DNA from: an uncultured Ignavibacterium sp.
GTDB lineage: Bacteria > Bacteroidota > Ignavibacteria > Tepidaquicellales > Tepidaquicellaceae
Reading direction: 5' to 3'
Assembly: GCA_964602825.1 (NCBI GenBank)
Contig: CAZRSU010000001.1
Coordinates: forward strand, 8,836 to 37,302
Length of the DNA: 28,467 nt
Part shown: positions 7,047 to 19,095 of the stretch, one piece after another
Position numbering within the stretch: position 1 is the stretch's first letter
Layout: every line of letters starts with the position of its first letter
The notes under the pieces: model-generated
Database searches by the model: none
Seen by the model: the letters and a program-made list of their open reading frames with translations, nothing else
What the model was told of the DNA's origin: nothing
Made by a program: the position numbers and the translations under genes

Positions 7047-8415
7047 TATTGTAAATTTTGATAACTGAATCAATTTCGTTTAAAGATTCATATCTCCCGA
7101 AACGAACCTTATACACAGTTCCCTTTACAGAATCCTGTACGTCCAGTATATTTACATCAAAACCCATATTTTCAAGTGCGCTTGCTCTGGCATCCGCCGC
7201 CTGTTTATCCCTGAATGAACCTGCCTGCACGCATAACCCGCTGTCAATGCGGACAACCATCATACCCGCAGATTTGAGCGATGAATCAAGCCCGGCAGGA
7301 ATCGTAAGCGCAGTGGCGTCGGATAATTTTTCATTTAACACATTTTCATTTTTCACCGGTGCGGCAGCCTGCTGCTGCGGCCTTCTGGAAATTACCAGAG
7401 AATAATAAACTCCGTATATTATAAGAAAAATAAATGCAACAAGTAACGCCAGAATTAATATATTTTTGAATATCGTAGGCTTGCCTTTGGACTCTTGCAG
7501 ATAAATATTTGCAAGTTTCTGAGCGGGCTTATCCGACACGAAATGCGGCGGCTGTTGCTTATGTTCTTCCTGCTGCGGATAAATCACTCCCTCGATTTCA
7601 TAATGCAGGCGCTTTAACTCCTCGGGAATTTCCACCTTTGCAATTTCATTTTCAAGTTCAATTTGTTCTGCAGTATGAATATTTTCTTCTTTACCGGTAT
7701 CCGCTAAAATATTTTTATTAAAAATTTTGTCTATAGAAAAATCCGGAATATCATCAGGTTTTGGCTGCGGCGCGGTCTTCTTCTGCAGAAGTGAATTAGC
7801 CGTATCCCAGTCCTGACGGGCTTTTGCGGAATCGCCCAGCAATTTCTGATAAACATTTCCGCGGTTGTGATATGCCTGCGCATAATCCGGCTTAAGGTTT
7901 ATCGCTGAAGTAAAGTCCGCAAGCGCTTCATTCGCTTTTGATAAATACATATAGCAGATTCCGCGCGCATTAAATGCTGCGGCGCTGCCGGGTTCGATGG
8001 TTACGGCACGCTCCGCGTCTGCAAGTGCCTCGCTGTATTTTTTCAGATTGCGGTATGCCTTTGACCGCTGAATGTATGCTTCGTGATTTAAGGGTTCGGA
8101 ATTTATTGCACGGGAAAAATCCGAGAGAGCGTCTCCGGGTTTATTCTGCTTTGATTTGCATAACCCTGACTTAGTGAATAATATTGATAAAAATTTTTCG
8201 CTTCCCTGCTGGTTTTTATCCGCAAAATCAATTGCAGAAGTGTATGAATCAATCGCTGCATCAAGGTCATTCAGTCCGTAATAGCAGTCTCCCCGCAATT
8301 CAAATGCTTCGGAGTTTCCAGGATTTTCCTGAATTAATTTGTTGCAGAGTTTGAGGGCGTTTTCGAAGCGGTGTAAACGGATTTCAGAAAAAATTTCATC
8401 AATTGATTTTGTCAT
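7039..8415 (-). CDS. TPR-repeat, single-TM, SPOR-domain protein (septal peptidoglycan-binding candidate)
   Basis: Several TPRs (A...RG..Y..L.....A..D...AI), hydrophobic TM ILILALLVAFIFLIIYGVYY, C-terminal SPOR motif VQAGSF....A...A..L...G......YKVRFG.Y. Confidence 0.85.
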   Translation of the reverse strand: MTKSIDEIFSEIRLHRFENALKLCNKLIQENPGNSEAFELRGDCYYGLNDLDAAIDSYTSAIDFADKNQQGSEKFLSILFTKSGLCKSKQNKPGDALSDFSRAINSEPLNHEAYIQRSKAYRNLKKYSEALADAERAVTIEPGSAAAFNARGICYMYLSKANEALADFTSAINLKPDYAQAYHNRGNVYQKLLGDSAKARQDWDTANSLLQKKTAPQPKPDDIPDFSIDKIFNKNILADTGKEENIHTAEQIELENEIAKVEIPEELKRLHYEIEGVIYPQQEEHKQQPPHFVSDKPAQKLANIYLQESKGKPTIFKNILILALLVAFIFLIIYGVYYSLVISRRPQQQAAAPVKNENVLNEKLSDATALTIPAGLDSSLKSAGMMVVRIDSGLCVQAGSFRDKQAADARASALENMGFDVNILDVQDSVKGTVYKVRFGRYESLNEIDSVIKIYNNE

Positions 8416-8499
8416 TTCAAAGTAGAATTATTCTTATAATTTTAATTTAATTTATTTTATATCAAATTTAAAGGATTTTATTCATTGCCCACCGCACAT

Positions 8500-10680: not shown

Positions 10681-12363
10681 ATGGCAAAGAAAAACGGAAG
10701 CGGGACCGAAGAACCTTTAGAAAAACAATTGTGGAAAGCAGCTGATAAGTTAAGAAAAAATATTGACGCTGCTGAATATAAGCACATTGTCCTTGGGTTG
10801 GTCTTTCTAAAATACATCTCCGATGCATTTGAAGAATTGTTTGCTAAGCTGAAAGCCGAAGAAGCGCAGGGAGCCGACCCCGAAGACAAAGACGAATACA
10901 AAGCCGAGAATGTTTTTTTTGTTCCACCTGTGGCACGTTGGAGTTTGTTGGTTTCGTATGCCAAACAACCTTCCATTGGAATTACAATTGATGCGGCCAT
11001 GGATGCCATTGAAGCTGAAAATCCATCATTGAAAGGTGTATTGCCAAAAGTATATGCCCGACAAAATCTCGACCCGACAAGTTTGGGCGAATTGATTGAC
11101 TTAGTTGGCAACATTGCACTTGGCGATACCAAAGCCCGGAGTGCCGATGTGCTCGGGCACGTTTTTGAATATTTCCTTGGTGAATTTGCCCTTACCGAAG
11201 GCAAAAAGGGCGGACAATTCTACACCCCACGGAGTGTTGTTGAATTGTTGGTTGAAATGTTGGAACCCTATCAGGGACGTGTTTTCGACCCCTGTTGTGG
11301 TTCGGGCGGCATGTTTGTGCAATCGGAAAAATTTGTAGAAGAACGAAAAGGAAGAGTAAACGATATTTCCATATACGGACAGGAAAGCAACCAGACCACA
11401 TGGCGTTTGTGTAAAATGAATCTTGCCATTCGTGGCATTGACAGTTCGCAGGTAAAATGGAACAACGAGGGTTCGTTTTTAAACGATGCACACAAAGACC
11501 TGAAAGCCGATTATATTATTGCCAATCCCCCCTTTAACGTGAGCGACTGGGGAGGCGATTTACTTCGCAAAGACGGACGCTGGCAATATGGCGTACCGCC
11601 AACCGGTAACGCCAACTATGCCTGGATTCAACATTTCCTTTATCATTTAGCACCCAACGGACAAGCCGGTTTTATATTAGCTAAAGGTTCGCTTACAAGC
11701 AAAACTTCGGGCGAAGGTGATATTAGAAAAGCATTGATTGAAAATAATTTGATTGATTGCATTGTAAACCTGCCTGCCAAACTTTTCTTGAACACACAAA
11801 TACCAGCCTCACTTTGGTTCTTAAGAAGGAACCGGAAAAAATTCCCCTCCGTTGGAGGGGTGTCCGCCGCGGGCGGACGGGGTGGTGCATTCCCCTCCGG
11901 CGGAGGGGTGCCCGAAGGGCGGGGTGGTGAAATCCTATTTATCGATGCCCGAAACCTCGGACATTTAATAAATCGCAGAACAAAAGAGCTTTCTCAAGAA
12001 GATATACAAAAAATTGCACAAACCTATCACTCCTGGAAATTCCCCTCCGATGGAGGGGTGTTCGCTGCAGGCGAACGGGGTGGTGCATTCCCCTCCGATG
12101 GAGGGGTGTCCGAAGGACGGGGTGGTTACAAAGATATTGCCGGTTTTTGTGCAGCCGTTCCAATTAATAAAGTAAAAGAACTGGATTATGTACTTACTCC
12201 CGGGCGGTATGTAGGTTTGCCGGATGATGAAGACGACTTTAATTTTAACGAGCGTTTCACAAACCTAAAAGCCGAACTGGAAGCGCAACTAAAGGAAGAA
12301 GAGCGATTGAATAAAATAATTGCAGAAAACCTGTCCAAAATAAAACTGAATGATGAAAAGTAA
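10681..12363 (+). CDS. hsdM: Type I R-M methyltransferase subunit, carrying two 87-bp in-frame repeat insertions
   Basis: LW.AADKLR, GQFYTP, motif [10 protein letters not shown], motif IV NPPF, LF.NT.IP..LW, C-terminal LTPGRYVG. Confidence 0.96.
11842..11928 (+). repeat. In-frame coding double-hairpin repeat dimer 1 (45+3+39 bp; [29 protein letters not shown])
   Basis: Read directly from sequence; length 87 = 29 codons. Confidence 0.92.
12040..12126 (+). repeat. In-frame coding double-hairpin repeat dimer 2 (45+3+39 bp; [29 protein letters not shown])
   Basis: Read directly from sequence; same architecture as dimer 1. Confidence 0.92.
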
Positions 12364-13192
12364 AAACAGCATTATTGCAGTAAAAGGTGTAGAAGTTTCA
12401 TTTCTTCAAACTAATCGGGAAGACTATATCTGCATTACAGATATTGCAAAATTTAAAAATCCCGAAGCCCCTGCCGACATTATCAAAAACTGGCTGCGTA
12501 CTAAAAACACCATTGAACTGCTTGGACTTTGGGAAAAGTTGCATAATCCGGATTTTAAACTGGTCGAATTCGACCAGTTTAAAAACGAAGCAGGGTACAA
12601 TCACTTTGTGCTGTCACCTCAAAAATGGATAGAAACGACAAATGCCATCGGTTTGCAATCGAAATCGGGGCGATATGGCGGCACCTTTGCCCATGTGGAT
12701 ATTGCCATGGAATTCGCCTCGTGGGTTTCGGTTGAATTTAAATTCTACCTGATTAAAGAATTCCAGTATCTGAAAAACCAGCAGGATAAAGAACTCGACT
12801 GGAATATTAAACGGAAACTCACAAAAATAAATTACCGCATACACACCGATGCCATAAAGGAGAACCTGATTCCGGGCTATCTTACCCCCCAGCAAATCAG
12901 TTACGTATATGCCAACGAAGCTGATGTGCTCAACATGGCACTTTTCGGCAAAACAGCAAAACAGTGGCGCGACGAAAACCCCGAAGAAAAAGGAAATATC
13001 CGCGACTATGCCAACGTATCCCAATTGGTTTGCCTGGCTAACCTCGAAAATCTTAATGCCGTTTTTATTATCGAAGGAATGCCCCAAAATGAACGCCTGC
13101 AAAAGCTTAACCAGATTGCTATAGGGCAAATGAGGATATTACTGCAAACCGATACCGCAAAATCGCTAAAACAAGGAGGTGAAAGTGAGTGA
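12350..13192 (+). CDS. KilA-N domain DNA-binding protein
   Basis: YI.ITDIAK, NWLR...TIE.LG.WE, SPQKWI, GRYGGT.AH.DIA.EFA.W motifs; overlaps the hsdM stop and hsdS start. Confidence 0.85.
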
Positions 13193-14348
13193 GTGGAAAG
13201 AGTACAAATTTTCTGATTTCGTTGAAATAAATCCAACCGTATCATTACCTGCGAATGAGAGTATTCCTTTTGTGGAAATGAAAGATTTGAATGAAAGCCA
13301 GAAGCATTGTTATCCAAGTTCTGAAAGATACAATAGGAATGGTTCTAAGTTCCAAAATAATGATACCTTGTTTGCACGGATTACTCCTTGTCTTGAAAAT
13401 GGGAAAATATGTAAAGTTACAGGATTAAAAAACAATTTTGGATTAGGCTCGACTGAATTTCTCGTATTCAGAGGAAAAGGAGGCATTTCTGATACGAATT
13501 TTGTTTTTTATTTAGCTCGCTGGGACGATGTCAGGTCTCATGCTGAAATTAATCTTGATGGAACTTCGGGAAGGCAAAGAGTTCCCAAAGCCTGTTTTGA
13601 TGATTTAATTATAAAGGTTCCTGCTGATTTCGGAGAACAACGCTCCATTGCCTCCATCCTTTCCAGCCTTGACGACAAAATAGAACTGCTCCACCGCCAA
13701 AATGCCACCCTCGAGAAAATGGCTGAAACGCTTTTTAGGCAGTGGTTTGTGGAAGAAGCGAAGGAAGAGTGGGAAAATACAAAAATTGGTAAAATTTTGA
13801 AGACAATATTAGGGGGTACTCCTTCTACAAACAAACCAGAATATTGGGATGGAATTATTCCATGGATAAACTCAGGAGAAGTAAACAATTTTAGAATACT
13901 AAAAGGGACTAAGTTTATTACAGAACTTGGTTTGAAAAAGTCGAACACTAAATTACTACCCAAAGGGACAACGGTAATTGCAATTACGGGAGCTACACTA
14001 GGGCAAGTTAGCTTACTTGAAATTGAAACCTGTGCCAATCAATCTGTAGTGGGTATTTTACCTAATGAAATTCTTCCAAAAGAATTCATATTTCTGTGGG
14101 TAAAATTAAAAATTAAAGAAATTATTCTAAGTGAAACAGGCGGAGCTCAACCTCACATTAATAAAAATGATATTAATGAAACTGATATAATCATACCTGA
14201 TCCTGATTATTTAAAAAAGTTGAAGGAACAAATAGAACCTCTTTTTGATAAGATAACAAAAAACAGTTTTCAAATAATAAAACTACAACAACTTCGTGAA
14301 TCATTGCTGCCAAAATTAATGAGTGGGGAAGTAAAAGTTGAAATTTAA
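13185..14348 (+). CDS. hsdS: Type I R-M specificity subunit (two TRDs); GTG start at 13185 preferred over 13179
   Basis: TRD1, conserved EQ..IA.IL..LDDKIEL....N.TLE..A..LF..WF, TRD2, LR..LLPKLMSGE; AAGGAGG lies 5 nt upstream of GTG 13185. Confidence 0.93.
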   Translation: MSEWKEYKFSDFVEINPTVSLPANESIPFVEMKDLNESQKHCYPSSERYNRNGSKFQNNDTLFARITPCLENGKICKVTGLKNNFGLGSTEFLVFRGKGGISDTNFVFYLARWDDVRSHAEINLDGTSGRQRVPKACFDDLIIKVPADFGEQRSIASILSSLDDKIELLHRQNATLEKMAETLFRQWFVEEAKEEWENTKIGKILKTILGGTPSTNKPEYWDGIIPWINSGEVNNFRILKGTKFITELGLKKSNTKLLPKGTTVIAITGATLGQVSLLEIETCANQSVVGILPNEILPKEFIFLWVKLKIKEIILSETGGAQPHINKNDINETDIIIPDPDYLKKLKEQIEPLFDKITKNSFQIIKLQQLRESLLPKLMSGEVKVEI

Positions 14349-14351
14349 TAT

Positions 14352-15344
14352 ATGGAAAAAGCATCTTCAGAAAATATCGAACTGTATTGTGTAAGAGCCG
14401 AATTCGGAACTTACACTAAACAATTTATTGATGGTAATTATGTTGCAATCGGTTGGTTACCGAAAAATGACCTTTCAGGAATCACTAGCCGTGACGAATT
14501 ATATCAATTGTATAAAAAGGAATATCCAAAGGATACCAGCAATGTGGTGATTGGTCAGCAAGTTGGGCAGATCGCACGTTTTCTCTTAGAAATAAAAGCA
14601 GACGATTTTGTGATAACACCTGCACAAGACACAGAATTTATTTATTACGGTATTATGGAAGAAAATGCATATTATTTTTCTGATGGTTCAGATGGATGCC
14701 CCTATCTACACCGTAAAAAAGTTAAATGGCACAAAGAACCCATTCGGAGAAGCCAATTTTCTGTTCCTTTTCAAAACACAATCCGTTCTTCGTTGACTGT
14801 TTTTTACATCAGCCATAAAAAGAACTTTTTTACAACGATTGGAAAACCTGACTTAATTCCTGACAGCGAAAAGAAAACGGAGTTCGATTATTACACATCT
14901 GTACTTAATCGAATTCTGGAACTGGATGACAAAGAATTTGAAATATTAATCACTCATATTCTAAACGCACTGGGTTTCGAAGGTTCGGAACACAAAGGTA
15001 AAGTGGGCGATGGTGGAGTGGATGCTACCGGTGAACTAAATGTGGCAAATATGGCCAAAATAAAGCTTTTTGTACAGGCCAAACGCTATAAACGTGATTC
15101 AAGAATATCGGCTAATGTAGTAAAAGCATTAAGAGCAAATATTCCTGCAGGAGGGCAAGGTGCATTTATTACTACTGCTGATTTTCAAAAGCAGGCAAAA
15201 GATATTGCGGTAGAACAGGGCTTTCCAAGAATAGGTTTAATTAATGGCGAACAATTGGTTGATATACTTGCAGATCATTGGAATGATATACCCGTTGAGT
15301 TTCAGGAAAAGTTATCTTTAAAAGTAGGATTAGTTCCAAATTAA
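14352..15344 (+). CDS. Mrr-family (type IV-like) restriction endonuclease with an extra N-terminal domain, possibly EVE/PUA-like
   Basis: C-terminal Mrr_cat motif FE.L...L..LGF...DGGVD...VQAKRY...G.FITT..F..A...IGLI.GE.L; the N-terminal domain assignment is inference. Confidence 0.8.
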   Translation: MEKASSENIELYCVRAEFGTYTKQFIDGNYVAIGWLPKNDLSGITSRDELYQLYKKEYPKDTSNVVIGQQVGQIARFLLEIKADDFVITPAQDTEFIYYGIMEENAYYFSDGSDGCPYLHRKKVKWHKEPIRRSQFSVPFQNTIRSSLTVFYISHKKNFFTTIGKPDLIPDSEKKTEFDYYTSVLNRILELDDKEFEILITHILNALGFEGSEHKGKVGDGGVDATGELNVANMAKIKLFVQAKRYKRDSRISANVVKALRANIPAGGQGAFITTADFQKQAKDIAVEQGFPRIGLINGEQLVDILADHWNDIPVEFQEKLSLKVGLVPN

Positions 15345-15345
15345 A

Positions 15346-18300
15346 ATGACCCGAATCACAGAAAATACTATCGAATCGTTTGCAATTGAGTTATTGGACA
15401 AACTCGGTTACGAATACATTTATGCTCCGAATATTGCCCCCGATGGTGAAACACCTGAAAGGGAAACTTACGAACAGGTTTTGTTGGTTGAACGTTTACA
15501 AAATGCCGTAAAACGCATAAACAAATACATTCCTGCCGATGCACAAACCGAAGCAGTAAAAGAGATTCAGCGCATTGCTTCACCCGAACTATTGGCAAAT
15601 AATGAGGCTTTTCACCGACTTTTAACCGAAGGTATTCCGGTTTCAAAACAATTAGATGGAAACGAACGGGGCGACCGTGTCTGGCTAATTGATTTTAAAG
15701 ATCCCTACAACAACGATTTTGTAGTTGCCAATCAGTTTACAGTGGTGGAGAACAACAATAACAAACGCCCCGATGTAATTTTGTTTGTTAATGGTATTCC
15801 GTTGGTGGTAATAGAATTAAAAAATGCAGCAGACGAAAATGCTACTATTCATTCGGCATTCAAACAAATTGAAACTTATAAAACCATAATTCCAACACTT
15901 TTCACTTACAATGGGTTTGTAGTAATTTCCGACGGATTAGAAGCCAAAGCGGGTTCTATCTCGGCGGGGTTTAGTCGTTTTATGGCGTGGAAGTCAGCCG
16001 ATGGAAAAGCAGAAGCATCGCATTTGGTAAGCCAGTTAGAAACCCTTATTTTGGGTATGCTCAATAAAGAAACACTGATTGACTTAATTCGTCATTTTAT
16101 TGTATTTGAAAAATCAAAACGAGAAGACCCCGAAACGGGAATTATAACAATTACCACCGTTAAAAAACTTGCAGCTTATCATCAATATTATGCTGTAAAC
16201 CGTGCTGTGGAATCCACATTACGAGCCGCCGGTTATTCCCCTCCCTCGGAGGGGTGGCTGAAAGCCGAGGTGGTAGAAGACCCGTATGGCATCTATCGCA
16301 ACGCTCAAAACTACTTCGATCTTCCATATAACCCAAAACTTAAAGAACGCGCACGGGCATTGCGTCAAGCCGGAAACTTAACGGAAGTACTTTTCTGGAA
16401 TCAGGTTAAAAACAAAAAATTTAAAGGTTATGACTTCGACCGTCAAAAAATAATTGGAAGCTACATAGTTGACTTTTATTGCAGCAACTGTAATGTAGTG
16501 ATAGAAATAGACGGGAGCAGTCATGATGACAAAGTAGATTATGATGCAGACAGAGATGCTTATTTAAGAAGCTTGGGGTTAGAGATTATTCATATTCCTG
16601 CAACAGATGTATTGCAGAGAATGGGGAGTGTTATGGATATGCTTTACGACCACCCCGCCCTAAAGGGCACCCCTCCAGAGGAGGGGAATGAACCACCCCG
16701 TCCGCCTATGGCGGACACCCCTCCAGAGGAGGGGAATATGGTGATGGAATCACCAGAAAGTTACGGTGTACCGGGTGTAAAAAAGCAACCTGTTGGCGAC
16801 CGTAAAGGGGGGGTAGTTTGGCACACACAAGGCAGCGGTAAATCGCTTTCAATGGTTTTCTATACGGGTAAAATCGTGTTGGCAATGGATAACCCTACCA
16901 TTGTGGTTATTACCGACCGCAACGATTTGGACGACCAGCTTTTTGATACATTTGCGGCATCTAAACAGTTATTACGTCAAGAACCGGTACAAGCCGAAGA
17001 TAGAAACCAACTGAAAGAGCTTTTAAAAGTTGTTTCGGGCGGTGTAGTTTTTACAACCATTCAAAAATTCCAACCCGATAATGGCAATATTTACGAATTG
17101 CTTTCCAATCGTGAAAACATTGTGGTGATTGCTGATGAAGCACACCGCACCCAATACGGATTTAAAGCCAAAACCATTGACGATAAAAATGAAAATGGCG
17201 ATGTAATTGGTAAAAGAATAGCTTACGGTTTTGCAAAATATATGCGTGATGCTTTACCTAATGCAACCTATCTGGGTTTTACAGGCACACCCATTGAAAA
17301 TACTGATGTAAACACCCCGGCCGTCTTCGGGAATTATGTGGACATTTACGACATTGCCCAAGCCGTTGAAGACGGGGCAACTGTCCGCATTTATTACGAA
17401 AGCCGTTTGGCAAAAGTAAACCTTAGCGAAGAAGGCAAGAAGTTAGTTGATGACTTGGACGATGAACTCGACCAGGAGGATTTAACCGATACCCAAAAAG
17501 CAAAAGCTAAGTGGACACAATTGGAAGCATTGGTTGGCAGCGAAAATAGAATTAGCCAGATTGCAAAAGATATTATAGAACATTTCGAGCAACGGCAATA
17601 TGTTTTTGAAGGCAAAGGGATGATTGTTACCATGAGCCGCCGTATTGCAGCAGATTTATACGAAGCCATCATCAAGCTAAAACCCGAATGGCATTCCAAT
17701 GAGTTGAACAAAGGTGTTATCAAAGTGGTAATGACTTCTTCATCGTCCGATGGTCCAAAGATTTCACGACATCATACAACCAAGGAACAACGCCGTACTT
17801 TAGCCGAACGCATGAAAAACCCGGATGATGAACTGAAACTCGTTATCGTTCGGGATATGTGGCTCACTGGTTTTGATGCACCATGTTTACACACCCTTTA
17901 CATTGACAAACCTATGAAAGGGCATAATTTGATGCAAGCTATCGCACGGGTAAACCGTGTTTATAAGGACAAGCCGGGCGGTTTAATTGTAGATTATCTC
18001 GGCATAGCATCCGATTTAAAAAAGGCACTTTCGTTCTATTCTGATTCAGGTGGAAAAGGCGACCCGACTATTTTACAGGAACAAGCAGTTCAATTAATGT
18101 TGGAAAAACTGGAAGTCGTTTCTCAAATGTTTAATGAATTCCCCTCCACTGGAGGGGTGGACAGCGAAACTGGACGGGGTGGTTTTAACTACGAAGATTA
18201 TTTTGCAGCCGAAACATCCAAAAAGCTTTCGATGATTTTAGCAGCCGAAGATCACATTTTAGGTTTGGAAGATGGCAAGAAAAGATACATAAATGAAGTT

Positions 18301-19095
18301 TCGGCATTATCAAAAGCCTTTGCAATAGCAATTCCGCACGATAAGGCAATGGATGCCAAAGATGAAATTTCATTCTTTCAGGCAGTAAAAGCACGATTAG
18401 CAAAATTTGACGGTACAGGTTCGGGCAAAACCGATGAAGATATTGAAACAACAATCCGTCAGGTAATAGACAAAGCATTGGTTACAGAAAAAGTAATTGA
18501 TGTATTTGATGCCGCAGGGTTAAAAAAACCCGACATTTCAATACTTTCAGAAGAATTCCTTCTGGAACTAAAGGGGATGGAACATAAAAATATAGCCCTC
18601 GAAGTATTGAAAAAATTACTCAACGATGAAATAAAATCAAGGGCTAAAAAGAATCTTGTAAAGAGTAAGTCCTTGATGGAAATGTTAGAGAACGCCATTA
18701 AGAAATACCATAATAAAATACTTACAGCAGCTGAAGTTATTGAAGAACTGATAAATCTGAGTAAAGACATTGTAGAAATGGATAACGAGGCCAAAGCAAT
18801 GGGGTTATCAGATTTTGAATATGCTTTTTATACAGCAGTTGCAAACAACGACAGTGCAAGAGAACTCATGCAAAAGGACAAATTGCGTGAATTAGCCGTT
18901 GTTTTGACAGAAACTATAAAACAAAATGCCTCGATTGACTGGACTATAAAAGAAAGCGTGAAAGCCAAACTTAAAGTTGCCGTAAAAAGACTATTAAGAA
19001 AATATGGTTATCCGCCCGACATGCAAATGCTCGCAACCGAAACCGTATTGAAACAAGCTGAAATGATTGCAAATGAATTAACAAATAAGGAGTAA
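15346..19095 (+). CDS. hsdR: Type I R-M restriction subunit with an inserted DUF559 cassette and a solo repeat
   Basis: RPD..L.VNGIPLV.IELK nuclease motif, YQYYAV, Walker A HTQGSGKS, DEAH, FT.TP, MWLTGFD.P, QA.ARVNR, C-terminal DWT..ES..A. Confidence 0.96.
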   Translation: MTRITENTIESFAIELLDKLGYEYIYAPNIAPDGETPERETYEQVLLVERLQNAVKRINKYIPADAQTEAVKEIQRIASPELLANNEAFHRLLTEGIPVSKQLDGNERGDRVWLIDFKDPYNNDFVVANQFTVVENNNNKRPDVILFVNGIPLVVIELKNAADENATIHSAFKQIETYKTIIPTLFTYNGFVVISDGLEAKAGSISAGFSRFMAWKSADGKAEASHLVSQLETLILGMLNKETLIDLIRHFIVFEKSKREDPETGIITITTVKKLAAYHQYYAVNRAVESTLRAAGYSPPSEGWLKAEVVEDPYGIYRNAQNYFDLPYNPKLKERARALRQAGNLTEVLFWNQVKNKKFKGYDFDRQKIIGSYIVDFYCSNCNVVIEIDGSSHDDKVDYDADRDAYLRSLGLEIIHIPATDVLQRMGSVMDMLYDHPALKGTPPEEGNEPPRPPMADTPPEEGNMVMESPESYGVPGVKKQPVGDRKGGVVWHTQGSGKSLSMVFYTGKIVLAMDNPTIVVITDRNDLDDQLFDTFAASKQLLRQEPVQAEDRNQLKELLKVVSGGVVFTTIQKFQPDNGNIYELLSNRENIVVIADEAHRTQYGFKAKTIDDKNENGDVIGKRIAYGFAKYMRDALPNATYLGFTGTPIENTDVNTPAVFGNYVDIYDIAQAVEDGATVRIYYESRLAKVNLSEEGKKLVDDLDDELDQEDLTDTQKAKAKWTQLEALVGSENRISQIAKDIIEHFEQRQYVFEGKGMIVTMSRRIAADLYEAIIKLKPEWHSNELNKGVIKVVMTSSSSDGPKISRHHTTKEQRRTLAERMKNPDDELKLVIVRDMWLTGFDAPCLHTLYIDKPMKGHNLMQAIARVNRVYKDKPGGLIVDYLGIASDLKKALSFYSDSGGKGDPTILQEQAVQLMLEKLEVVSQMFNEFPSTGGVDSETGRGGFNYEDYFAAETSKKLSMILAAEDHILGLEDGKKRYINEVSALSKAFAIAIPHDKAMDAKDEISFFQAVKARLAKFDGTGSGKTDEDIETTIRQVIDKALVTEKVIDVFDAAGLKKPDISILSEEFLLELKGMEHKNIALEVLKKLLNDEIKSRAKKNLVKSKSLMEMLENAIKKYHNKILTAAEVIEELINLSKDIVEMDNEAKAMGLSDFEYAFYTAVANNDSARELMQKDKLRELAVVLTETIKQNASIDWTIKESVKAKLKVAVKRLLRKYGYPPDMQMLATETVLKQAEMIANELTNKE
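16236..16736 (+). mobile_element. 501-bp in-frame cassette: DUF559 (Vsr-like PD-(D/E)XK) endonuclease domain flanked by inverted double-hairpin repeats
   Basis: Left unit 16236-16274 (+); right dimer 16649-16688 and 16692-16736 (-); core LPYNPKLKERAR.LR....E..FW, FDRQK.IG.YIVDFYC, VIEIDG.SH; 501 = 167 codons. Mobility is inferred. Confidence 0.8.
18139..18183 (+). repeat. Solo in-frame coding double-hairpin repeat in hsdR (FPSTGGVDSETGRGG)
   Basis: 45 bp; hairpin A intact, hairpin B partly degraded. Confidence 0.88.

Follow-up and report, generated by a model that had tools for sequence, protein, structure and literature searches.

The DNA analysed here, 28,467 nucleotides (nt) of an uncultured Ignavibacterium sp. 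(assembly GCA_964602825.1, contig CAZRSU010000001.1, positions 8,836-37,302, forward strand; this whole stretch is called the window), contains a type I restriction-modification (R-M) operon in which eight short repeat units all lie in frame within hsdM or hsdR. We show that a small cassette carrying a Vsr-like DUF559 nuclease domain has such units as its terminal inverted repeats, and that they also occur as tandem dimers (two in hsdM) and as a solo unit (one in hsdR). They belong to the BoxC / PIT / intrastrand triplex motif (TM) class of repeats, as a hairpin-linker variant, and selection acts on them as DNA structures, not as peptides. In our judgement it is probable that units and nuclease together make up a homing-like cassette with folded-DNA ends, accompanied by solo units.

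Eight structured units in a restriction-modification operon

All eight units follow one design, A-TT-CCCCTCC-NNN-GGAGGGG-T-G-(hairpin B)-(C)GGGGTGG-T, in 40-46 nt; six are on the plus strand and two, units 6 and 7, on the minus strand. The first hairpin, hairpin A (CCCCTCC-N3-GGAGGGG), is present in eight copies in the window, where 100 shuffles gave an expectation of 0. A covariance model trained on 27 units, from other genomes and the window, recovered from the window the same eight full units only (46-70 bits) and, when run over the whole 2.42-Mb, 521-contig genome, found no unit beyond the eight, in agreement with looser regular-expression scans. The units, the blocks that they form and their two host genes are as follows (aa, amino acids).

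10681-12363, plus strand: hsdM, methyltransferase subunit, 560 aa; hosts units 1-4; Pfam N6_Mtase (E 1e-104) and HsdM_N
11841-11886, plus strand: unit 1, first half of tandem dimer 1; hairpin A loop GTT; hairpin B GTCCGCC-GCG-GGCGGAC; third block GGGGTGG; 68.5 bits; read as FPSVGGV
11889-11928, plus strand: unit 2 (short form); hairpin B GCCC-GAA-GGGC; 51.5 bits
11842-11928, plus strand: tandem dimer 1, in hsdM; 87 nt, 29 codons
12039-12084, plus strand: unit 3, first half of tandem dimer 2; hairpin B GTTCGC-TGCAG-GCGAAC (5-nt loop); 65.3 bits
12087-12126, plus strand: unit 4; hairpin B GTCC-GAA-GGAC; 53 bits
12040-12126, plus strand: tandem dimer 2, in hsdM; 87 nt
15346-19095, plus strand: hsdR, restriction subunit, 1249 aa; hosts the cassette and unit 8; HSDR_N, SWI2_SNF2, T1R_D3-like and T1RH-like_C domains
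16235-16274, plus strand: unit 5, left cassette end; hairpin B GGCT-GAA-AGCC; third block GAGGTGG (one change); 46 bits; read as SPPSEGW
16237-16737, plus strand: composite cassette, 501 nt, 167 codons; unit 5, DUF559 domain, inverted units 6 and 7; read through in frame
16336-16647, plus strand: DUF559 domain (Vsr-like PD-(D/E)XK), aa 331-434 of HsdR; Pfam PF04480, E 1e-27; no start or stop codon of its own
16649-16689, minus strand: unit 6, inner right cassette end, inverted; hairpin B GCCC-TTTA-GGGC; 53.6 bits; read within ..HPALKGTPPEEGN
16692-16737, minus strand: unit 7, outer right cassette end, inverted; hairpin B GTCCGCC-ATA-GGCGGAC; 69.8 bits
18138-18183, plus strand: unit 8, solo in hsdR; 45 nt from TT to GGT, 15 codons; degenerate hairpin B CAG-CGAAA-CTG; 65.1 bits

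Each hsdM dimer consists of a long unit, GC and a short unit, its 87 nt being counted from TT to GGT. An earlier interpretation made from the letters of the window (the sequence-only reading) had described hairpin A as the same in all eight copies around a varying loop, and with minus-strand copies reoriented the loops are exactly those it listed: GTT, GGC, GAT, GAT, CTC, TCT, TCT and ACT. Its hairpin B stems were also recovered as given, with the qualification that copy 8 is imperfect, pairing CAG with CTG only, and that copy 3 has a 5-nt loop. The conserved tail that it had seen in seven of eight copies is the third block, GGGGTGGT, and the exception is copy 5, with GAGGTGGT. An A precedes every copy, as it had noted, and 88% of 145 units from other genomes among the matches listed. 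Folded as single-stranded DNA, every unit has the two hairpins as its minimum-energy structure (z -1.5 to -4.5), two hairpins being all that the energy models used predict for the units.

Selection on DNA structure

A one-genome-per-species scan with TTCCCCTCC-N3-GGAGGGGTG gave at least 120 loci, which among the matches listed span Bacteroidota, Cyanobacteria, Firmicutes, Patescibacteria, Cloacimonadota, Acidobacteriota, several proteobacterial classes and others. Among the canonical units listed, the segment between GGAGGGG and GGGGTGG takes 101 distinct forms of 10-30 nt; nearly all of these hairpin B segments are palindromic, and their loop is often GAA, GCA or GTA, closed by C-G. Hairpin A is fixed by the search pattern, and its invariance in this pattern-selected set is therefore uninformative; where loci were picked solely by DUF559 similarity, 25 of 26 nonetheless had CCCCTCC or a 6-nt form of it.

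For hairpin B, a contiguous-stem count was misled by a G.A mismatch, and we used pair counting by length class, with shuffled and slid controls, in two gap-free classes picked by length alone and not by pairing (64 units in all). The class with an 18-nt hairpin B (27 units) had two-sided changes in 35 cells, at six of seven pairs, against 9.4 in shuffled sets (0 of 500 reached the observed value), and 85% of its hairpin B cells were paired. In the 12-nt class (37 units) two-sided changes fell in 18 cells against 3.4 when shuffled (again 0 of 500), with 98% of cells paired. Slid controls dropped to background in both classes. The two-sided changes, 53 in total, went from one Watson-Crick pair to another, G-T cells numbered only 1-3, and one-sided changes were nearly absent, a pattern that fits a DNA palindrome, unlike the usual RNA helix. 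The covariation on which the sequence-only reading had staked its case is thus present in a larger alignment, in the 27-unit and the 37-unit set alike.

Side features of hairpin B were also seen. At its second pair (alignment columns 23/37), 19 of 27 units share a conserved G.A mismatch, and some units have tandem G.A/A.G, which places GGAC on both sides of the inner hairpin. A pairing of the tail with the CCCCTCC arm would carry one C-T mismatch and one G-T pair, and was set aside.

We considered whether the repeat might instead be kept as a Gly/Pro-rich flexible linker that is useful to its hosts. All eight copies are translated within intact genes, in surface loops, and the blocks measure multiples of three (87, 87, 501 and 45 nt). 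The sequence-only reading had, however, reported translation in three different frames or strands (FPSxGGV, SPPSEGW, TPPEEGN), and reading the DNA bears this out: three frames and two strands yield unrelated peptides from the same nucleotides, which are invariant even at third codon positions, so that conservation does not follow codon position. Furthermore, 140 of 193 hairpin-A sites in other genomes, among the matches listed, are outside open frames of at least 200 aa, the E. coli relatives described below are always intergenic, and a peptide explains neither the mirror block nor the stem covariation. Peptide selection as the main constraint is refuted, and we give the linker explanation almost no credence; the in-frame lengths and the scarcity of stop codons are more aptly regarded as a filter through which surviving insertions have passed. 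Because hairpin B covaries, G-T pairs are few and most copies lie outside long frames, we conclude that selection acts on DNA structure and not on peptide, much as the earlier reading had argued for nucleic-acid structure in general.

A mirror third block and the triplex-motif class

The third block, GGGGTGG, is GGAGGGG reversed with T for A, that is, a mirror repeat, in seven of the eight units (GAGGTGG in one). The mirror rule was tested on a set not selected for the mirror, namely 30 DUF559 genes that the Pfam model had identified across 150 genomes of the phylum. Near these genes we found, among further families, the block families CCCTCTCC / GGAGAGGG / GGGTGAGG, CCCTTCTCCT / AGGAGAAGGG / GGGATGAGGT, CCCCCCTT / AAGGGGGG / GGGGGGAT and CCCCTCCTC / GAGGAGGGG / GGGGTGGTG, and some of these other families also have hairpin linkers. 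Where blocks were asymmetric, the mirror stood 3' of the purine arm in about 45 of 49 hairpins; the direct-repeat control reached 13 and the upstream control 3. Across block families the third block therefore covaries with the purine arm. This comparison of sequences supports the three-block architecture as a conserved feature, which would not by itself prove a triplex in the cell.

Repeats of this architecture have been catalogued since the 1990s as BoxC, PIT or TM repeats (Bachellier; Hoyne 2000; Holder 2015, PMC4666352; Kaplan 2016, PMC5100583). The E. coli form, TM_ECO, reads CCCTCNCCC-N3-6-GGGNGAGGG-N3-GGGNGAGGG, in which a complementary block and then a mirror purine block follow the pyrimidine block. 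Single strands of it adopt a purine-motif intrastrand triplex in vitro, and its 23 copies in K-12 are all intergenic and often form inverted pairs (Holder 2015, PMC4666352). That study reported neither promoter or terminator activity, nor a mobile-element link, nor a partner protein for the repeat (PMC4666352), and the same E. coli sequences have also been described as a quadruplex-hairpin switch (Kaplan 2016, PMC5100583).

The window's units share with this class the succession of pyrimidine block, 3-6 nt loop, complementary purine block, linker and mirror purine block with T opposite A, as well as GC-richness, occurrence singly or in inverted pairs, moderate copy number and a range of many phyla. 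They differ in having blocks of 7 nt (CCCCTCC) and not 9-10 nt (CCCTCNCCC), and in their second loop, which in the present family is a covarying hairpin of 10-30 nt where the published repeats have 2-3 nt. Moreover, every copy in the window is genic and translated, whereas those of E. coli are always intergenic, and the published repeats came without a named partner protein or mobility. Published searches limited the loops to 1-6 nt (ITxF) or 0-10 nt (Hoyne) (PMC4666352). The first loop of our units, at 3 nt, is within these limits, but the 12-18 nt linker between purine block and third block in the window, which folds as a hairpin, exceeds them, and the hairpin-linker variant consequently fell outside the earlier searches. 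The TM_ECO consensus itself does not occur in the window, and a generic whole-genome scan found the CCCCTCC type only; elsewhere an E. coli locus carries the consensus, as does an HsdM homologue, at the same HsdM loop.

The sequence-only reading had left open whether the structure was one of DNA or of RNA. That the units are structured stands, and so does the DNA half of the proposal, given the Watson-Crick to Watson-Crick changes, the presence of both orientations in one transcript and the triplex design; the RNA half does not. It is true that the hairpins would form in RNA too, that GGAGG resembles a ribosome-binding site and that AT-rich long-stem forms in Chryseobacterium resemble terminators, all of which might suit a structured mRNA segment acting on stability, translation or termination of the R-M transcript. 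Such an element is nonetheless highly improbable: no Rfam family covers the units (the sole match, to anti-hemB, scores 21.5 bits against a gathering score of 49.5), both orientations lie within one hsdR transcript, G-U pairs are nearly absent among the 53 two-sided changes, purine-motif third strands are stated to be unable to form in RNA and the earlier work on E. coli saw no promoter or terminator activity (PMC4666352).

Inverted units bracket a DUF559 nuclease domain

At the ends of the hsdR cassette CCCCTCC faces outward and GGGGTGG toward the nuclease domain. The sequence-only reading had suggested that the tail may mark the cut or integration end, which the data do not support: GGGGTGG is the mirror third block and faces inward, CCCCTCC is outermost, and no target-site duplication is present. 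The DUF559 domain between the units keeps the near-invariant residues of its family (D61, E72, D74 and H78 in the alignment, numbered within the 122-aa segment 16291-16656). Compared with solved folds, its structural model (predicted local distance difference test, pLDDT, 92.9) comes nearest to 3HRL, a DUF559 protein, followed by I-Bth0305I, a homing endonuclease, in its catalytic domain.

The association of units and nuclease recurs in other genomes. Among the matches listed, a DUF559 domain 54-70% identical to that of the window lies beside or between inverted units at 11 of 120 pattern-selected loci. Selection in the opposite direction gave flanking units within 260-300 bp at 25 of 26 loci picked by DUF559 similarity and at 25 of 30 picked by the Pfam model. 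Within 260 bp of DUF559, pyrimidine/purine hairpins reach 13.5 times the density seen in the remainder of these loci. At the protein level, 118 of the 120 best long DUF559-clade proteins have the peptide signature of hairpin A at the domain border, 90 of them on both sides, and insert-free HsdM proteins have it in none of 61. In a sample of 151 genomes of the phylum, 18 carry units (from 1 to at least 41 copies), of which 16 also have DUF559, as against 74 of 151 overall; the genome of the window has one DUF559 and eight units, all in one operon. Finally, TM_ECO no. 9 of the 23 in E. coli K-12 stands 168 bp downstream of ycjD, a DUF559 gene whose product is 37% identical to the window's domain. 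Our literature searches turned up no description of a connection between DUF559 and these repeats.

In their small GC-rich hairpins, in the frequency of inverted pairs spaced 12-27 nt apart and in having a single-copy gene between inverted repeats, the units also recall REP/REPIN or IS200/IS605-like elements. On this view a Y1 (HUH) transposase, for instance RAYT, would use the hairpins as single-stranded DNA substrates, and DUF559 would be irrelevant. Y1_Tnp proteins are indeed encoded in the genome, but the three matches to this family are on contigs C14, C23 and C24, and no unit was found outside the window's operon; the flanked gene is DUF559 and not a Y1 transposase, there is no conserved GTAG-type 5' tetranucleotide, and copies number eight here, not hundreds. 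We regard this explanation as very unlikely.

Other arrangements of units were observed. At the 3' end of ycjD (8240-8440 of the E. coli locus, L151) a degenerate triplex-type unit, a partial duplicate of the last ~45 nt and then the intact TM_ECO no. 9 follow one another. In an Oscillospiraceae metagenome-assembled genome the units around DUF559 are reversed, with third blocks outward and CCCCTCC inward. At eight loci two units stand head to head, 12-27 nt apart and without a nuclease in the spacer; in these REPIN-like doublets the GGGGTGG blocks are outermost.

Insertion sites, hosts and spread

The order of genes in the operon is hsdM, a KilA-N gene, hsdS, an Mrr-like gene and hsdR, so that the KilA-N and Mrr_cat genes are additional genes within a type I operon. 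The three genes between the hosts are listed here.

12350-13192: KilA-N domain gene (Pfam), between hsdM and hsdS
13179-14348: hsdS
14352-15344: Mrr_cat (restriction endonuclease-like, Mrr-like) gene (Pfam), between hsdS and hsdR

The hsdM and hsdR frames are both open throughout, and Pfam coverage is full length despite the inserts. HsdM has 560 aa, where homologues without insert have 511-513 aa, and HsdR 1249 aa, where cassette-free close homologues have 1075-1085 aa. A recent horizontal gain of the operon is not supported by composition (contig GC 0.406, genome 0.389 +/- 0.021).

In 75 HsdR homologues (53-96% host identity) the cassette occupies one site, after AVESTLRA.G(Y/F). An hsdR homologue was present in 63 other genomes of the phylum; most of the close ones (77-85%) have frames of 1075-1085 aa and are thus cassette-free, and one genus holds both the empty and the filled allele. 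Around the site the sequence is RATGY / TLEKETPTS / MVMESPESYG in the empty allele and RAAGY / cassette / MVMESPESYG in the window; the flanks are conserved, and the 501-nt cassette stands in place of the 27 nt that encode TLEKETPTS. No target-site duplication was found at the three sites compared with empty hsdM and hsdR homologues, where native loop codons are replaced; for the same two reasons a miniature inverted-repeat element of a DDE transposon was rejected. An AAT...AAT flank at one locus was tried as a target duplication and did not recur.

The two insertion sites in hsdM follow the same pattern. In about 120 HsdM homologues (~80% identity) they hold 0-4 units in either orientation, and the same loops hold other repeat families, including a classical BoxC-type unit; because other repeat-encoded peptides occupy them, several GC-rich repeat families share the two sites. 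The peptides seen there (after core ~387-391 and 435, homologues P0004-P0105) include PLEGAGGG, TVPEVLEGT/EAPEG and GGFENLS. One further HsdM homologue, of 639 aa, has an internal duplication of ~130 aa of the methyltransferase core.

The clade's cassette is found in frame in HsdR, type ISP, MmeI/Eco57I-like and N6_N4 methyltransferase proteins and, in one case, QueA; free-standing copies with their own Met occur in Serratia, downstream of hsdS, and at two other loci. Nearly all of the best 120 long hosts of the clade are R-M enzymes, as are 11 of about 19 identifiable host frames in pattern-selected loci among the matches listed. Other DUF559 clades lie in frame in other genes of the phylum, namely MetH, LeuRS, Acs and other HsdR, so that the choice of host looks clade-specific, as is the case with inteins and homing endonucleases. 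The MetH inserts share one position in three genomes of different families, LeuRS is represented by two loci and Acs by one, and the DUF559 domains in these genes are flanked by other triplex-type units. Three HsdR proteins with the DUF559 cassette also have a GIY-YIG domain (PF01541) in the same frame, apparently a nuclease insert of another kind.

Copy number differs widely. Five genomes of the phylum hold from 16 to at least 41 units each, many with identical scores on different contigs, and elsewhere there are 2-16 copies per genome. Such dozens of near-identical dispersed units point to recent amplification.

A homing-like model and its main rival

Given a fixed site, empty alleles, absence of duplication, replacement of adjacent codons and a homing-like fold, break repair between alleles fits these data better than cut-and-paste transposition. 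In the mechanism that we propose, the nuclease would recognise the folded ends (the hairpin, or the hairpin with its third strand) on transiently single-stranded or extruded DNA, or else the site in the empty allele, and make a break; repair off the filled allele would then copy the cassette in. This would amount to homing-like gene conversion with no splicing. Solo units might be left behind or copied in trans. Insertions in frame into tolerant surface loops would be read through, which is possible because the units have few stop codons and are commonly 39 or 45 nt long, and selection would retain only those. Frequent horizontal transfer of R-M genes would bring such a homing element many empty alleles.

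The serious rival, if an unlikely one, is spread without any dedicated enzyme. Units prone to triplex, hairpin or quadruplex formation would, as non-B DNA, stall replication and cause slippage, illegitimate recombination and gene conversion, which is what Holder et al. propose for the repeats of E. coli (PMC4666352). DUF559 would then be a mere passenger, or else a useful additional domain of restriction enzymes that is moved from gene to gene by recombination at the units. Holder 2015 ties TM_ECO loci to local instability with no partner gene (PMC4666352), the same HsdM loops hold anywhere from 1 to 4 tandem copies, unrelated GC-rich repeat families share those two loops, most units are solo, and host and DUF559 identities are correlated. 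Enzyme-free spread nevertheless leaves unexplained why DUF559 is bracketed by inverted units at independently chosen loci (25/26 and 25/30, with the 13.5-fold local enrichment), why block sequences differ around different DUF559 clades, and why nuclease residues are conserved in hundreds of read-through copies.

Several points weigh against the homing-like cassette itself. No paper that we found reports cleavage, binding or transfer; the window's copy lacks a start codon of its own, and DUF559 may be a useful added domain of restriction enzymes and not a selfish gene. For the E. coli repeat, no triplex was seen in double-stranded DNA or in vivo, and Holder et al. saw no mobile-element link (PMC4666352). 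About 90% of the units in other genomes, among the matches listed, lie far from this DUF559 clade, and the genomes in our tallies are interrelated, so that the counts are descriptive and overstate independence. Because host and DUF559 identities correlate (r = 0.53), much of the spread within hsdR may be vertical; two HsdR hosts only 53-67% identical to that of the window have DUF559 domains that are yet 76-77% identical to its own. The confinement of this clade to R-M genes is also left unexplained by homing.

Wider implications

In the literature read, BoxC/PIT/TM repeats have been given no origin, partner or function, and the very common domain DUF559 lacks a defined function. We tentatively suggest that the two belong together, DUF559 nucleases being the missing partners of these repeats, and the pairs widespread homing-like cassettes with folded-DNA ends (hairpin and mirror third strand) that sit in frame and unspliced in conserved genes and shed solo units into genes and intergenic DNA alike. 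The conserved hosts would be R-M enzymes for the present clade and MetH, LeuRS, Acs and QueA for others. If true, a large domain of unknown function and an orphan repeat family known for 30 years would both gain a function, and introns and inteins would be joined by a third means by which a nuclease gene can reside in its host gene without harm. The physical pairing of repeats and DUF559, which rests on clade-specific block sequences and on an architecture kept by three-way covariation, is a directly testable hypothesis for both.

For R-M systems, in-frame unspliced inserts enlarge and diversify the proteins, and insertion may influence recombination and spread of these defence genes. DUF559 proteins were found to be enriched (odds ratio 14) among predicted targets of programmed inversion (PMC9881135), an enrichment that may just reflect the flanking inverted units, since the cassette's inverted repeats can pass for programmed inversion sites. 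The repeat class is known; its hairpin-linker variant, its life inside genes and its role as the ends of a DUF559 cassette in R-M genes appear undescribed in the literature searched.

Comparison with known systems

One likeness is to I-Bth0305I and the EDxHD (Vsr-like) homing endonucleases (PMC3239194, PMC2677866). The modelled DUF559 domain would share the catalytic fold of I-Bth0305I, its second-best solved match (TM-score 0.75, root-mean-square deviation 2.4 Å), and the cassette resembles EDxHD genes in its fixed site in a conserved gene, its presence or absence among close relatives and the lack of target duplication. Unlike them, it is not in an intron or intein and is not spliced, but is translated within the host protein; neither an intein/Hint domain (Pfam) nor an Rfam intron was found in the cassette, and the frame is open through it. 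Its ends are structured, inverted DNA, for which homing endonuclease genes have no need, and no N-terminal DNA-binding region of the I-Bth0305I kind was seen in it.

With the REP/REPIN-RAYT system the units share the combination of short GC-rich hairpin repeats and a cognate single-copy nuclease gene between inverted copies, the occurrence of inverted doublets and a majority of non-autonomous copies. Here, however, the flanked gene encodes a PD-(D/E)XK Vsr-like nuclease and not an HUH Y1 transposase, GTAG is lacking, copy number is low, copies lie in frame in genes, and conservation extends across phyla where REP sequences are species-specific.

Integron attC sites have conserved short end motifs around a central part that is free in sequence and length yet palindromic, and they work as folded single-stranded DNA. 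The units likewise combine conserved short end motifs with a palindromic centre free in sequence and length, and would also act as folded single-stranded DNA; they differ from attC in sequence, in having no integrase or cassette array and in their third mirror block. Rickettsia palindromic elements, reportedly described by Ogata in 2000, are said to be among the palindromic repeats that are translated inside genes. The present units are unrelated to them in sequence and much shorter (39-46 nt), and they bring with them a third mirror block, a nuclease cassette and a distribution over many phyla.

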